Shown here one piece after another: positions 6,644-11,693 of a DNA stretch of 64,000 nt. Each line of letters starts with the position of its first letter. The stretch's first letter is position 1. Origin of the DNA: an uncultured Actinomycetes bacterium (GTDB lineage Bacteria > Actinomycetota > Thermoleophilia > Gaiellales > JAICJC01); the NCBI GenBank assembly GCA_963731515.1, contig CAVSVU010000017.1, forward strand, positions 541,164-605,163, in the 5' to 3' direction. The translations under genes and the position numbers were made by a program. Below the pieces are notes generated by a model. It was not told the DNA's origin. It did no database searches and worked only from the letters and a program-made list of their open reading frames with translations.

Positions 6644-6716
6644 GCGCCTGTAGCTCAGGGGATAGAGCGTGCGCCTCCGGAGCGCAAGGCCGTAGGTTCG
6701 ATTCCTACCAGGCGCA
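6644..6716 (+). tRNA. tRNA-Arg (anticodon CCG)
   Basis: Hand-folded cloverleaf: acceptor GCGCCTG/CAGGCGC, D stem GCTC/GAGC, anticodon stem TGCGC/GCGCA with loop CTCCGGA, variable AGGCC, T arm GTAGG-TTCGATT-CCTAC, discriminator A. Length 73 nt, no encoded CCA. Confidence 0.93.
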
Positions 6717-6721
6717 TATAT

Positions 6722-6881
6722 CTCTGCCCGCCTCATCGTCGCTCAAATGTGCTCGGCCAGGCAGGATCGGCTCGGGTAGGCCACAAACGGCACCTCGCCC
6801 GCTCTGGCCGCCTTATCGTCGCTCAAATGTGCTCGGCCAGGCGGGATCGGCTCGGTTAGGCGACAAACGGCACCTCGCCCG
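6722..6881. repeat. tandem direct repeat, 2 units of 80 bp (about 92% identical)
   Basis: Unit 1 (6722-6801) and unit 2 (6802-6881) align base for base with about 6 mismatches (ATCGTCGCTCAAATGTGCTCGGCCAGGC.GGATCGGCTCGG.TAGGC.ACAAACGGCACCTCGCCCG). The repeat starts 5 nt after the tRNA. Confidence 0.9.
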
Positions 6882-7141
6882 ATGGATGCCGGCTTGCCGG
6901 AGGGCGAGCCGGCATCCGGTGGATCGCCGACCCCGACGCCGACACCCTCAAACTCCGAGCCGGCGACCACGCCCTCATCATCGAGCGGTGTGAGTACCGC
7001 ATCGACCGCACCACCGGCGTGGTCGAGGTGCGCGACTACACCGACCCGCGCTCGATGCGCTACCAACGCTCTGACCCGCGCCGGCCGGGGCAACCCTTTT
7101 TCTCGCCCTCGTCCGACCTCGACGGCGGCGAGGTCGCCTAG
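6860..7141 (+). other. possible small coding region without canonical start (IRWIADPDADTLKLRAGDHALIIERCEYRIDRTTGVVEVRDYTDPRSMRYQRSD...)
   Basis: The frame is open from 6860 to TAG 7139-7141 with high GC3 and a protein-like residue mix. It has no ATG/GTG/TTG. ATG 6882 lies in another frame. May be a frame-broken or truncated gene. Confidence 0.3.
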
Positions 7142-7358
7142 CCGTGGCCGAGGGTCGCTGCGCGTCTCCCCGTACGCGTACACGATCACAATGGGTAATA
7201 CCACCCATCCGTTCGGTTCCGCTCAAGTTACTGGCCCTTTTGTTCGAATGGAAGCGAGGCGAGTTGATTTGAGTTGAAGTAGGTAGTGGAGGACTCCGGC
7301 TCGGCTGCCCGGCACCGATGAGCCAGGCCAACACCCACGAGCCCAGGAGGGCAACTCC

Positions 7359-8480
7359 ATGAAACGCCGCATCACCCTCATCACCGCCGCGGTGGTCGCC
7401 GCTTGCGCGGTGCTCCCATCGGTCGCCTCGGCGGCCACCACCTCGACGCTCACCGCCTCGCCGGCCTCGGTCGACTTCGGCACCAGGTCGACCACCGCAC
7501 CCACCGGCCACTCGGCCACCGTGACCAACACCGGTCACCAACCCGGTGCGCTCACCACCGCTCACCTCCGACCCGGCGGCGGTCGCCATGCCGTTCACCA
7601 CGTGCGTGACACCTGCTCGGGCCGCCTCATCGCCGGCCGGCGCGACCTGCAAGCTTCGGGGTCTACGTTCGACGCCGGTTGGGCTCGGCTACGGGCCATA
7701 TGCACGGTGCCCTCACCATGCACCGGCACCGATTGACCGTGACCGCCGAGCGACACGGCCTACGTCAGCGTGCCCCTCACCGGCACGGCGGTCGACCGCC
7801 CTGCCGGTCATGCACCTCGCGTCGAGCGCGGTGAGCCGGGCGAGCTTCTACCCGCTCGTGCAAGACCGCTACCTCGACGTGACCCGCTACTCGGCGAGCT
7901 TCACCGAGCCGGCCACCGGCAAGGTGCAGGTGCTCAACTCGGTCGGCCGCGTGGTCAAGGCCTGGCCGTTCACCAACTCGCACCTCGGTCGCCGAGGATT
8001 GGCGCGGCCGCTCGACGCTCGGCACCAAGGTCAAGCCGGGCACCTACCGCTTCCGGGTCATCGCTCACGGCGTCGCCGGCACGAGCACCGGCTCGGTCTC
8101 GGGCGGCATCCGCTCGACGGTGGTACGCACCGGATGGCGAGCCGTGCATCACGCCATCGACCGCACCGGCGTCAACACCACGAGCCGGCACCGCTCGCTC
8201 ATCGTGCTTCTTCGACACGTGGGACTGGCCGACGCTTGAGCTTGACTCGTGGGGCGGCACCTGCACCGCCACGTGGCGGGTCGGCGTGCCGAACAACGCC
8301 TACGGGGTGAGCTACTCGATGCGCGCCAACCGCGACGCCGGGGCCGACCTACATGGCCCGAAGACCCACACCGCGGTGCGCACCTCTTGGGGCGTGCTCT
8401 TCACCGCCTCGACCGGCGATTGGGCCGCGCTCGACGTGCACGGGGTGCATGTCGGCTACTGGACCAAGCACCGCATCTAG
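7359..8480 (+). pseudogene. secreted Ig-like repeat protein (ASH/HYDIN-like plus FlgD-Ig-like domains), at least 5 frame breaks
   Basis: A good RBS (CAGGAGGG) precedes ATG 7359 with signal peptide MKRRITLITAAVVAACAVLPSVASA. Coding signal then moves between frames: VPLTGTAV (frame 0), SFYPLVQDRYLDVTRYSASFTEPATGKVQVLNSVGRVVKAW (frame 1), WRGRSTLGTKVKPGTYRFRVIAHG (frame 2), FFDTWDWPTLELDSWGG...YWTKHRI (frame 0). Confidence 0.7.
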
Positions 8481-8538
8481 CGAAACGGGGCACAACGCCC
8501 CGTCGGCGAGACCTGGCCGCCTCGCCCTGATGAGCTAG
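8477..8538 (+). ncRNA. hammerhead self-cleaving ribozyme motif, type II topology (stem II open); predicted cleavage between 8504 and 8505
   Basis: CUAGC|GAA|ACGGGGC-ACAAC-GCCCCGU|C|GGCGAG-ACCUGGCCGC-CUCGCC|CUGAUGA|GCUAG. The full conserved core is present: CUGAUGA, GAA, A15.1-U16.1, the GUC triplet and G10.1-C11.1. There are three compatible helices. Confidence 0.8.
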
Positions 8539-8556
8539 GCCATACACCCACGACCC
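8484..8556 (+). repeat. 73-nt repeat copy 1 (hammerhead stems III and I, CUGAUGA, GGCCAUACACCCACGACCC tail)
   Basis: Identical to 9121-9192 except for one extra A (8537). Confidence 0.9.
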
Positions 8557-8569
8557 CGAGGAGGGCAAC

Positions 8570-8586
8570 CGGGGCACGAGGCCCCG
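8570..8586 (+). other. hairpin CGGGGC-ACGAG-GCCCCG followed by UUUCG (weak terminator-like or anti-ribozyme element)
   Basis: 6-bp GC stem with 5-nt loop. Its 3' arm plus UUUCGC (8581-8592) is the exact reverse complement of GCGAAACGGGGC (8480-8491) in the hammerhead. Confidence 0.5.
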
Positions 8587-8639
8587 TTTCGCCTACGGGC
8601 GGGTGTTGGCCTCGATGCGGAAGAGCACCACCGCCGATC

Positions 8640-9167
8640 GTGAAGCAGATCGCCGCGTACCCCGGCGACATCGTGTCGGTCGACACCTACCCCACCGCCC
8701 AGCACCCTGCCGAGATGGGCGCCAAAGTCGCCCTCATGCACCGGGCCGCGCACGGCCGCCGAGTGTGCGCCGCGCTCCAGGTATACAACCGCAGCAACTC
8801 CACGAGACCACGTGTAGACGACCGCCAACCCGACGGCACCCGATCACCACCTCGGCCATCGCCGGCTCATCGTCGGCCAAGGCCACCTCGGTCATCCGCA
8901 TCACCATCACCGACACCGGCGATGCGCTCGGCCAGGTCCGGCTTGACCTGTCGCTCGACGCCGCCGCTTCCTCGCCCAAGCCCTGCTCGGCTCGGCCGGC
9001 GACGCCGAAAAGGCGGCGTGATAACCGAGCCCCAAAAGCGTTGGTACTGGCGCTGCTCGTGCGGTGCGCACAGTCGCTCGGACGGATCGCTGATCCAGTC
9101 CGACGCCGAGTGGCTCGCCGAACGGGGCACAACGCCCCGTCGGCGAGACCTGGCCGCCTCGCCCTGA
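8640..9167 (+). other. uncertain coding region between the two hammerhead-type modules (possibly a frame-broken small gene)
   Basis: High-GC3 stretches appear in two + frames (VKQIAAYPGDIVSVDTYPTAQHPAEMGAKV..., ...SVIRITITDTGDALGQVRLDLSLD..., ...KRWYWRCSCGAHSRSDGSLIQSDAEWLAE). No intact ORF with a recognisable domain. A minus-strand reading cannot be excluded. Confidence 0.25.
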
Positions 9168-9177
9168 TGAGCTGGCC
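9113..9177 (+). ncRNA. second hammerhead-like module, probably impaired as sequenced (GAAC instead of GAAAC; stem II not complementary)
   Basis: Stems III and I, GUC (9139-9141) and CUGAUGA (9164-9170) are identical to copy 1. The GAA-A15.1 run is one A short. The flanks GGCUCGCC and GCUGGCC pair poorly. Confidence 0.45.
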
Positions 9178-9192
9178 ATACACCCACGACCC
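9121..9192 (+). repeat. 72-nt repeat copy 2 of the hammerhead module
   Basis: Identical to 8484-8556 apart from a 1-nt indel. The repeat period is 637 nt. Confidence 0.9.
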
Positions 9193-9237
9193 GGTCAATC
9201 GGCGCTGATGAGCCAGGCCAGCGGTCGCGGCGCTCGG

Positions 9238-9251
9238 TTCCTACCAGGCGC
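9238..9251 (+). repeat. 14-nt direct repeat of the tRNA-Arg 3' end (TTCCTACCAGGCGC), att-like islet boundary
   Basis: Exact copy of 6702-6715 (T-arm 3' strand plus acceptor 3' strand of tRNA-Arg), same orientation, 2.5 kb downstream. Confidence 0.6.
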
Positions 9252-9411
9252 CTTTGGGCAGTCCGGGCGATTCGGCTCAACGCCCGCGAAAACCCTCGTG
9301 GTTGAGGTGAAAGTCGGCACAGGCGCGCTCCATGCCGATAGCCTTTTCGTGTGACACGACCACCGCCTGACCCGGCGCGGGGCGCGGAAGCGGCCAGGAA
9401 AACTCAGATGC

Positions 9412-9777
9412 TTGGGCGTCAAGGGCATCCTCATCGAGGCTGCAGAGCTGGGTTACATCACGCAAGTGACGTGCAGGATGCCCGAGTGCTTCTGTCCCGA
9501 GGAGCTGGGCGGTGCTCGGTACTTCGAACCTGTCACTGACGAGCTGACCGACTGGATGCCGACCCACGAGCATTTCCCACGGCCAAAGCGAGCCGGCGGC
9601 CATCGAAGTCCCGACAATGCCGTGCTTGCGCACCGCCTGTGCAACAGGATCGACTATTCGATATCCATCGGGCGGCCATACGCGAGAGATCTCGAGCGGG
9701 TCAGGAAAGCTCGCGAGGCGGCCGCCCGGAGGTCGTTTGTCGACCACGATGATCCACCACGGACAGGGGAGGGACCT
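9412..9777 (+). CDS. HNH (His-Me finger) endonuclease-like segment, in frame with the downstream ABM domain
   Basis: CRMPECFC...THEHFPRPKRAGGHRSPDNAVLAHRLCN gives a Cys cluster plus the H..H...GG...N...H..CN spacing of HNH nucleases. It has a TTG start and lower local GC. There is no stop before the ABM part. Confidence 0.45.
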
Positions 9778-10074
9778 GTGATCGCGCGGATCTGGCGGGG
9801 CGCGGTGCGCCCAGGAGATGCGGACGAGTACGCCGCCTACGTTCGGGACACGGGCGTCGACCAGTACAAGTCGACGCCGGGGAACCGGGGGGCATGGATC
9901 CTCCGCCGGCCTGCGGGGGACATGACGGAGATCGTCGCGTTCTCGCTCTGGGAGAGCATGGACGCCGTCCGCGCGTTCGCCGGCGATGACCCGTCACGGG
10001 CGGTCTACTACCCCGAGGACGATCGCTTCCTGGTCGAGCGCAGCGACGTCGTCGAGCACTACGAGGCCGACTGA
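9778..10074 (+). CDS. antibiotic-biosynthesis-monooxygenase (ABM/Dabb)-like small protein
   Basis: VIARIWRGAVRPGDADEYAAYVRDTG...EIVAFSLWESMDAVRAFAG is a typical ABM ferredoxin-like fold sequence. GTG 9778 is preceded by GGGGAGGGA. Confidence 0.6.
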   Translation: MIARIWRGAVRPGDADEYAAYVRDTGVDQYKSTPGNRGAWILRRPAGDMTEIVAFSLWESMDAVRAFAGDDPSRAVYYPEDDRFLVERSDVVEHYEAD

Positions 10075-10564: not shown

Positions 10565-11635
10565 CTACTGCTCCACGGTCACAATTCGCAGACCCCGGCG
10601 GCGGATGCCGCGGATGATCCGGGGGAGGGCCTTGATCGTGGCCGTCCGGTCGCCGCCGCCGTCGTGCATGATCACGATCGAGCCCGCGTGGACGTGCGAG
10701 AGCACCGAGCGGACGATGCCCTTCGCGGTGCGCCCCGGCGCCCAGTCGCGCGGGTCGACGGACCAGAGCACCACCCGGCAGCCGAGGCTGGACGCGATCG
10801 CGACGACGCGATCCGACCAGCCCCCGCCCGGCGGCCGGAACAGGGTCGGGTGGACGCCCTCGGCGATCAGCGTGCGCCGGGCGAGCGCGATCTGCGCGCG
10901 CACGACGCCCGGGCGCTGCTCGCCGAACGGCGGCGTCAGCGGGTGGCTCCAGGAGTGGTCCTCGACGAAGACGCCATGCTGGCGCCGCTCCGCCGCGATG
11001 ATCCCGGGGAAGTGCTCGGCGAGGTTCCCGACGGTGAAGAACGTCGCCCGTGCGTGGAACCGGCGCAGGATGGCGAGGATCCGCACCGTCTGCCCCGGCC
11101 ACGGCCCGTCGTCGAACGTGAGCGCGACCGCCTGCGGCACCCGCGGCGGGCCGGTCGGCCGAAACGCGGTCGAGGCCACCTTGCCCGAGATGTTGCCCCG
11201 CACCGTCACCTCGACTCCGGGCACGCGGCCGAGCGTGTACTCCGGGTCGGCCGGCTCGCCGCCGGGGACGGGGACGCGGCGCACGGTCACCGGCTCGGTG
11301 CGGTCGGGGCCGGGCACGAGCCGGAGGCGGTCGCCGGAGCGCAGCGGCTCTCCGCCGGGGAGCGGCGCGCCGTTGACGAGCACCCGGCCGGGGTAGCGGC
11401 CGGCGGCGATCGTCACACCGCCGACGTCGACCAGGTCGCCCGGGCGTGGCCGGAGGTCGAGGTCGCGGATCGCGTCGGCGAGCGTCGAGTGCGCAACCGC
11501 CTGGCGCGTCGCGCCGTCGACGCGAAGCTGGAGCGGCGGCGGCTGGTCGGCGACCGTCGGCGCCCGCCATCCCGCGGCCACCAGCACGACGCAGACCAGC
11601 GCCACCCGCGATCCGATGCGACCGATCCGTGCCAT
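10565..11635 (-). CDS. polysaccharide deacetylase (NodB homology domain) with N-terminal membrane anchor
   Basis: ALTFDDGPWPGQTVRILAILRRFHARATFFTVG...HSWSHP are NodB motifs. ATG 11635 gives MARIGRIGSRVALVCVVLVAAGW as the anchor. Confidence 0.8.
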   Translation of the reverse strand: MARIGRIGSRVALVCVVLVAAGWRAPTVADQPPPLQLRVDGATRQAVAHSTLADAIRDLDLRPRPGDLVDVGGVTIAAGRYPGRVLVNGAPLPGGEPLRSGDRLRLVPGPDRTEPVTVRRVPVPGGEPADPEYTLGRVPGVEVTVRGNISGKVASTAFRPTGPPRVPQAVALTFDDGPWPGQTVRILAILRRFHARATFFTVGNLAEHFPGIIAAERRQHGVFVEDHSWSHPLTPPFGEQRPGVVRAQIALARRTLIAEGVHPTLFRPPGGGWSDRVVAIASSLGCRVVLWSVDPRDWAPGRTAKGIVRSVLSHVHAGSIVIMHDGGGDRTATIKALPRIIRGIRRRGLRIVTVEQ

Positions 11636-11693
11636 CCCTGCATGGTGCCCTACCCGGTCCGGGCGGATCTGCGTCCGGCGCGTGTCAGGTGTG

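Follow-up and report, generated by a model that had tools for sequence, protein, structure and literature searches.

Hammerhead ribozymes have been reported from bacteria by the hundreds, and those of type II are 'very common in eubacteria' (Perreault et al. 2011, PMC3088659). In the typical type II motif, a pseudoknot between loop I and the 3' tail forms the tertiary contact needed for fast cleavage, and clusters of hammerheads flanking single genes cut ~2-kb polycistronic RNAs in vitro; some clustered copies are possibly non-functional (PMC3088659). In the same survey, the core-adjacent pairs A15.1-U16.1, G10.1-C11.1 and N1.1-N2.1 served as rejection criteria (PMC3088659). Three type II hammerheads of Desulfovibrio vulgaris are active in vivo, as detected by cyPhyRNA-seq (PMC8782182), and the biological role of such hammerheads is only 'suggested' (PMC6765202). 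The present analysis concerns a hammerhead, named HH-1, located in a 64,000-nt stretch (the window) of contig CAVSVU010000017.1 from an uncultured Actinomycetes bacterium. A first-pass annotation, made from the letters alone, had described it as a complete type II motif directly after a stop codon and had called bacterial hammerheads uncommon, which understates the abundance reported in PMC3088659. On its sequence and covariation, HH-1 is a genuine type II hammerhead and its identity is secure. The favoured reading is a ribozyme that processes mRNA between cistrons, as described in PMC3088659.

On the + strand, HH-1 (8477-8544) reads CUAGCGAAACGGGGCACAACGCCCCGUCGGCGAGACCUGGCCGCCUCGCCCUGAUGAGCUAGGCCAUA, with the motif at 8477-8538 exactly as first quoted. 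That span is right in sequence but stops too early, since the element runs to 8542, or to 8544 in the Rfam alignment. GAAA, a hairpin, UC, a second hairpin and CUGAUGA follow one another, and the flanks pair, leaving stem II open and stems I and III capped; this is the type II topology. The conserved core (C3 U4 G5 A6 N7 G8 A9 / G12 A13 A14 / H17) is complete by sequence reading and by a structural descriptor, which also uphold the initial assignments of a 7-bp stem III and of a 6-bp stem I with a 10-nt loop. The TAG of the upstream gene does lie within the 5' strand of stem II. The core-adjacent pairs are all present, namely A15.1-U16.1 (A8485-U8503), G10.1-C11.1 (G8534-C8481) and N1.1-N2.1 (G8505-C8526). 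For stem II, the open permutation stands, but the five pairs plus one G-U proposed at first pass probably do not: the stem more likely has 3-4 bp (G8534-C8481, C8535-G8480, U8536-A8479 and perhaps A8537-U8478), and G8538 more likely belongs to the pseudoknot strand GGCCA than to a fifth pair. Positions 4-6 of this stem are paired in just 5-12 of 16 relatives. The pseudoknot between loop I and the tail has 5 bp, where at least 4 were required for the family, and is the contact that appears as UGG...CCA in the RF02276 consensus.

The Rfam family RF02276 (Hammerhead_II) aligns end to end with 8478-8544 at 39.1 bits (gathering score 37) and with E = 2e-4 over the whole 64-kb window, both strands and 4227 families. 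A strict structural descriptor has a single match in the window, which is HH-1, and returns genuine hammerheads only from ~0.8 Mb of other DNA. Every defining feature of Hammerhead_II that can be tested in sequence is found in HH-1.

Comparison with relatives adds covariation to these matches. An 86%-identical homologue of the upstream protein is encoded in another uncultured Actinomycetes metagenome-assembled genome, on a 338-kb contig here called L001 (the same contig as L032, CAVPSM010000002.1). The L001 locus is syntenic with the window, and the flanks are ~90% identical. Its orthologous hammerhead, HH-1' (L001 11101-11167), reaches 45.5 bits in Rfam and differs from HH-1 at ~10 of 66 positions, all outside the conserved core nucleotides and including U7 to C; two pairs of stem I have changed in compensation (GGCGAG/CUCGCC vs GGCAGG/CCUGCC). 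A further copy, HH-1b' (11594-11661), stands after the next gene, and here four of six stem III pairs are compensatory (CGGGGC/GCCCCG vs GCCCGC/GCGGGC). In total, L001 holds three full hammerhead copies.

More distant copies come from a leader-independent pattern scan of metagenomes, which matched at least 120 loci; among the matches listed, ~11 are true hammerheads, with Rfam scores of 31-50.5 bits, and the others are coincidences inside coding sequence. The stems of 16 copies of the subtype were parsed by hand, the MAFFT alignment of the copies being structurally wrong. All parsed stem cells are paired (236/236), with stem III at 97/97 positions, stem I at 91/91 and pairs 1-3 of stem II at 48/48, and two to four types of pair occur at the majority of positions. 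The pseudoknot is present in 16/16 copies and covaries in contig L065 (UGGCC/GGCCA vs UUGCC/GGCAA). The claim of a complete type II hammerhead directly behind a stop codon is thus backed by the covariance model, by covariation in syntenic and distant copies and by the pseudoknot. Both searches that the first-pass annotation had proposed, with the Rfam models and for covarying copies in related genomes, came out in its favour, the latter through the two stem I pairs of HH-1' and the four stem III pairs of HH-1b'.

Several metagenomic contigs (L065, L091, L130 and L151) carry same-strand arrays of 2-3 hammerheads spaced 270-930 nt apart. On the minus strand of L065, copies at 1618-1696, 1362-1426 and 1066-1145 lie within 830 nt, between open reading frames (ORFs) of 59-67 amino acids; two have a long interrupted stem III together with the covaried pseudoknot UUGCC/GGCAA, and one has U in place of C3 (UUGAAGA). 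Five relatives possess an extra A or U between A9 and G10.1: HH-1b' of L001 (11650), L065b (~1374), L091a and L091b (~818 and ~1747) and L130a (~1095). Copies with the extra nucleotide score lower in Rfam, and HH-1b' is missing from the Rfam output at E <= 1. The (+) hammerhead of chrysanthemum chlorotic mottle viroid (CChMVd) reportedly has an extra nucleotide at this very place, between A9 and G10.1.

Other searches delimit the family. The short contigs L002 and L003, which encode more distant homologues of the upstream protein (39-53% identity), contain no hammerhead, and the link between gene and ribozyme is therefore not old. The leader pattern CTGAYGAN{3,6}GGCCN{0,3}ACACCCACGA gave 4 matches in viral contigs and 24 of 25 in genome contigs that are due to chance, with no hammerhead present; the L001/L032 contig is the sole true match, so the leader is lineage-specific. 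A stem I-specific pattern had no match in viral contigs, and blastn ('distant') of 8440-9260 had none in PLSDB plasmids and INPHARED phages.

A consistent gene layout accompanies these hammerheads. The upstream cistron, gene 1, has homologues in P0001 (86% identity, Pfam PF22544/PF07610) and in P0003 (ASH and FlgD_ig), and its TAG stop sits inside HH-1. In L001, the leader after HH-1' leads to an ATG and to a gene for a 130-amino-acid lipoprotein, which matches a phage BLIP-like 'moron' family; the order there is gene 1, HH-1', leader with Shine-Dalgarno and ATG, lipoprotein, HH-1b', leader, an ORF of 70 amino acids and HH-2'. Among the relatives, the last base of the upstream stop codon falls anywhere from 17 nt before the start of the Rfam match to 2 nt within it (<=2 nt from the start in 10/16), and a Shine-Dalgarno sequence and ATG follow 12-42 nt past the end of the match. 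Neighbours of the metagenomic arrays match phage families, such as phrog_846 (1e-40), an ATP-dependent DNA ligase and XRE-type repressors. As read from these contigs, stop codon, hammerhead, Shine-Dalgarno and ATG succeed one another, in the relatives usually among phage genes.

Very probably, HH-1 belongs to a type II subtype whose members act as punctuation in the polycistronic transcripts of mobile DNA, for the most part of phage origin. In the proposed mechanism, the + strand would be transcribed from a promoter region upstream of 7359, and stems III and I would fold into hairpins. The short stem II would be closed by pairing of its stop-codon-bearing 5' strand with the GCU(A) after CUGAUGA, and pairing of UGGCC in loop I with the GGCCA tail would keep stems I and II parallel. 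The RNA would then cleave itself after C8504. The upstream mRNA would end with the stem III hairpin and a 2',3'-cyclic phosphate, and the stem I hairpin, bearing a 5'-OH, would open the downstream RNA ahead of the conserved leader and its Shine-Dalgarno. This cut, with a hairpin on either side, was the original prediction, and the architecture it presumes is supported; the predicted fold of the upstream fragment places the stem III hairpin at the extreme 3' end. The outcome would be one mRNA per cistron, each with its own stability and translation.

HH-1 does not stand alone, and the conserved leader, the fragments, the pseudoknot and a second copy 95% identical to it had gone unnoticed. Judged by its core, it is the sole intact copy in a decaying same-strand array (Table 1). 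The leader, with the consensus ACACCCACGAsCCC-GGAGGGCAAC at 8543-8569, stands 3' of all six copies and remnants in the window and L001. Upstream, HH-0 (CCGAUGAGCCAGGCCA...) reads, with its leader, GGCUGCCCGGCAC-CCGAUGA-GCCAGGCCAACACCCACGAGCCCAGGAGGGCAAC; U4 is replaced by C, GAAA and stem III are absent, and the remnant runs directly into the leader and the Shine-Dalgarno that serve the gene with its start at 7359. The L001 version of HH-0 is identical. Past HH-1 lies an inverted partial unit, whose minus strand reads GGCCAACACCC-GCCCG-UAG-GCGAAAC-GGGGC-CUCGU-GCCCCG; in + strand RNA it is complementary to the core and stem III of HH-1. It occurs in the window only and is absent from L001.

HH-2 matches HH-1 exactly from stem III through CUGAUGAGCU, but its GAAA has become CGAA (G12C, A13G), and the L001 orthologue HH-2' has CAAA (G12C) and 28.6 bits. 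A homopolymer sequencing error as the source of this core change is ruled out, because the G12-to-C replacement is common to the independent L001 assembly. In an alternative register of the window copy, the A15.1-U16.1 pair would be replaced instead. G12 is the general base in hammerhead catalysis. HH-2 is probably catalytically dead or severely impaired in either register, to judge from its core. Complementarity is perfect between its 5' flank CUCGCCGA and UCGGCGAG, the latter comprising the cleavage site and the 5' strand of stem I, and this pairing lengthens stem III into one long alternative hairpin (fold z = -4.4). The flank resembles a truncated stem I from another unit and so points to a deletion between copies in tandem.

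The array appears to sit in a 2.5-kb att-bounded mobile remnant, and no integrase or phage structural gene was found within 6717-9252. On the right, the att-like repeat is a divergent version of the last third of tRNA-Arg and has a 14-nt exact core at 9238-9251 (2 matches against 0.02 expected by chance). L001 has the same right-hand repeat, and also a perfect 29-nt copy of the tRNA end before the islet, making two such copies. Between tRNA-Arg and the hammerhead islet, L001 carries an extra insert of ~1 kb (8365-9442) with an NmrA/epimerase-like ORF on the minus strand. The perfect 29-nt copy marks the end of this insert, and the islets would therefore have accreted in tandem at tRNA-Arg, whose 3' end looks like a repeatedly used integration site. 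Signs of a prophage neighbourhood are the att-like tRNA-Arg repeats and the likeness of the L001 cargo to a phage moron family; an integrase is missing from the islet. The initial view of a tRNA-linked islet rather than an obvious prophage is right about the tRNA, given the att-like copies of its 3' end, and needs adjusting on the contrast, as related arrays lie among phage genes. The att-like bounds and the relatives among phage genes therefore indicate the usual mobile-element context, only degraded.

Table 1. Features of the hammerhead array and of its surroundings, in window coordinates
Feature	Position	Strand	Evidence
tRNA-Arg(CCG), with the left att-like repeat as its 3' end (core 6702-6715)	6644-6716	+	ARAGORN, Rfam, repeat search
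HH-0 remnant (7303-7343) and leader, 5' untranslated region of the upstream cistron	7303-7358	+	repeat families D9 and D20; sequence
Upstream cistron (gene 1), secreted ASH/HYDIN-Ig and FlgD_ig-like protein with signal peptide	7359-8480	+	GC3 phases, translations, homologues
HH-1, intact type II hammerhead	8477-8542	+	Rfam RF02276 match, structural descriptor match, covariation
HH-1 stem II, 5' strand, containing TAG 8478-8480	8478/9-8481	+	sequence reading, descriptor
HH-1 C11.1	8481	+	sequence reading, descriptor
HH-1 G12-A13-A14	8482-8484	+	sequence reading, descriptor
HH-1 stem III, 7 bp (A8485-U8503 and 6 bp), loop ACAAC	8485-8503	+	
HH-1 C17; predicted scission 8504/8505	8504	+	sequence reading, descriptor
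HH-1 stem I, 6 bp	8505-8510 with 8521-8526	+	
HH-1 loop I, 10 nt	8511-8520	+	
HH-1 pseudoknot, loop I UGGCC with tail GGCCA	8514-8518 with 8538-8542	+	
HH-1 C3-A9, CUGAUGA	8527-8533	+	sequence reading, descriptor
HH-1 G10.1	8534	+	sequence reading, descriptor
HH-1 stem II, 3' strand	8534-8537	+	
Conserved post-ribozyme leader UACACCCACGACCCCGAGGAGGGCAAC, Shine-Dalgarno GGAGG	8543-8569	+	alignment A1
Inverted partial unit (leader, stop codon, hammerhead 5' half)	8570-8611	-	inverted repeat I15
Remnant of the 70-amino-acid cistron, intact in L001 (11682-11894)	8812-9021	+	alignment A1, L001 sequence
HH-2, full-length copy, 95% identical to HH-1	9114-9180	+	repeat D3; Rfam 29.9 bits (below gathering score)
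HH-3 fragment CGGCG-CUGAUGA-GCCAGGCCA (3' core, stem II strand and tail only)	9200-9220	+	repeat D20; conserved in L001
Right att-like repeat, copied from the T-arm and 3' acceptor strand of tRNA-Arg (tRNA 3' third) and diverged	9220-9252	+	repeat search, alignment A3

Around the islet, an 80-nt unit right after tRNA-Arg (6722-6801) is duplicated in tandem (6802-6881, 94% identical), with a single copy in L001. Directly past the right att-like repeat, an ORF at 9412-10074 (+) joins an HNH-endonuclease-like N-terminus (…HEHFPRPKRAGGHRSPDNAVLAHRLCN…) to a C-terminus resembling ABM (antibiotic biosynthesis monooxygenase), a Pfam match of 21 bits that is below the cut-off; this stretch has 62-65% GC against 72% and is conserved in L001. 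A weak match to CRISPR-DR29 at 10987-11032 (+; 20.5 bits, E = 1), within a polysaccharide deacetylase gene, is almost certainly due to chance.

Probable frame breaks affect housekeeping genes of the window, in a tandem M29 peptidase paralogue (~1990-2040) and in a DUF58 gene (~12236). Throughout, the window and L001 differ by 7-24 gap openings per kb. Indels everywhere in both assemblies suggest assembly errors in one or both, so that single-base indels are not to be over-interpreted, and the apparent pseudogenes of the islet may be such errors.

Several points weigh against a punctuating ribozyme at work in this genome. HH-1 passes the Rfam threshold by 2 bits, a small margin explained mainly by the departure of stem II and loop I from the consensus. 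In 11 copies, three pairs at the base of stem I, the UGGCC loop and the 3' core were fixed by the pattern used to scan the metagenomes, and since it chose those copies, conservation at these positions is partly by construction; the second copies on the metagenomic contigs were not picked through it. When 8470-8600 is folded to minimum free energy, 8480-8491 becomes paired to 8581-8592 and the hammerhead is destroyed, as would happen after 8581-8592 has been transcribed; cleavage would therefore have to be co-transcriptional, ahead of the competing duplex. Minimum-free-energy folding does not reproduce the hammerhead fold of HH-1, as is expected of a non-canonical core with a pseudoknot. A scan of 6700-9500 that did not include actinobacterial promoter types found no sigma-70-like promoter and no intrinsic terminator. 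Gene 1 crosses at least three frame changes in the window, being either a pseudogene or a carrier of assembly indels, and the Shine-Dalgarno after HH-1 is followed by no start codon. Where L001 has its second cassette, the window has poorly alignable DNA that starts with the inverted half-unit, and the cistron of 70 amino acids opens with GTG-TAG, a stop at codon 2, and has three 1-nt deletions. With neighbouring cistrons that look broken or lost and an inverted fragment that can compete with the fold, the present-day function of HH-1 is less certain than its identity. HH-1 might then be a fossil, structurally intact and now idle in a dead islet of pseudogenes, its RNA unmade or trapped before cleavage. 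This is a serious contender, if on balance an unlikely one. The frame breaks of gene 1, the missing or rearranged downstream cistron, the early stop of the third cistron and the predicted long-range duplex all fit it, as do the loss of G12 from HH-2 in both genomes, the reduction of HH-0 and HH-3 to fragments and the lack of an integrase between the att-like repeats. Yet the core of HH-1 is intact and ~15% of its non-core positions have changed in a compensatory manner between two species, which suggests selection until recently at least; housekeeping genes show frame breaks too, in assemblies with the indel differences noted above, so that the 'pseudogenes' may be errors; and co-transcriptional cleavage could come before the competitor.

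A different proposal takes the hammerhead-plus-leader units chiefly as DNA-level recombination joints for the gain, loss and inversion of cassettes, in the manner of integron attC sites, with their ribozyme likeness secondary. Differences between the window and L001 do fall at unit boundaries, where a cassette and HH-1b' are lost or replaced and a half-unit is inverted; moreover, HH-2 has the appearance of two units fused by a deletion, and the leader is conserved after every unit. However, homologous recombination between any repeats leaves identical scars, no integron integrase or other recombinase lies nearby, and 13 core nucleotides, three compensating stems and an RNA pseudoknot are kept across unrelated contigs with different leaders. 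Only ribozyme function at the RNA level explains that conservation, and the proposal is very improbable. Still less can be said for a chance match or a generic pair of GC-rich hairpins (a terminator or an element like repetitive extragenic palindromes) in DNA of 72% GC. Hairpins abound in such DNA and the Rfam margin is small, but the E-value holds across the whole window, the orthologue scores higher with compensatory changes and the relatives reach 50.5 bits, no T-run or terminator-like site is present, and the strict descriptor had no false matches in its ~0.8 Mb; on these grounds the idea is effectively refuted. A bolder variant of punctuation adds gating by translation. The stop codon lies in or against the 5' strand of stem II and the next Shine-Dalgarno 10-30 nt past the pseudoknot tail, and it is tempting to propose that this overlap couples cleavage to upstream translation and that the HH-2 hairpin is a domesticated structural element, although the combination is rather improbable. 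If it were true, stem II, G12-A14 and some of stem III would lie beneath a terminating ribosome, which would thereby block or reverse the active fold. Cleavage would then report upstream translation and set the fate of the downstream message through its 5'-OH, hairpin cap and exposed Shine-Dalgarno; HH-2, a G12 mutant with a long hairpin kept in two species, would be a non-cleaving structural element and not debris.

Intercistronic punctuation, the preferred reading of HH-1, leaves the knowledge of hammerheads unchanged, as PMC3088659 already has the class with its pseudoknot, its clusters around single genes and its mobile-element context, and already considers that copies may be dead. What the locus adds is a well-supported type II array from an uncultured high-GC Actinomycetes lineage. 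The consistent layout of stop codon, hammerhead, Shine-Dalgarno and start on unrelated metagenomic contigs would sharpen the idea of cutting into single-gene mRNAs. The locus also offers a natural series, with an intact copy, compensatory and extra-nucleotide variants, a G12 mutant with an alternative hairpin, and fragments.

Compared with the type II hammerheads of RF02276 and PMC3088659, HH-1 has the same permutation and core, a short stem II and the pseudoknot between loop I and tail (consensus UGG...CCA). It differs from them in a longer potential stem II (up to 5-6 bp), with one nucleotide of overlap with the pseudoknot tail, in its 10-nt loop I and in its host, from a high-GC uncultured Actinomycetes lineage. 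The prophage clusters of PMC3088659 (the ardA triple of A. tumefaciens, C. scindens and A. caulinodans) likewise have same-strand hammerheads between small genes, and the role proposed for them is the cutting of polycistronic RNA into single-gene mRNAs. Unlike these clusters, the window keeps one intact copy, with C at position 12 in HH-2 and C at position 4 in HH-0, which lacks a 5' half; the element is a 2.5-kb att-bounded islet devoid of integrase or recognizable phage structural genes; and its cargo consists of small secreted proteins and lipoproteins, with a conserved 25-nt leader and Shine-Dalgarno after each unit. The D. vulgaris hammerheads (PMC8782182), which are also chromosomal, bacterial and of type II, set a precedent for predicted motifs that cleave in cells, whereas HH-1 comes from a different phylum and lies at a different kind of genomic position. 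Finally, five relatives of HH-1 recall the (+) hammerhead of CChMVd, described with an extra nucleotide in the core (De la Pena & Flores 2001, cited in PMC2632901); no such insertion interrupts the canonical core of HH-1.

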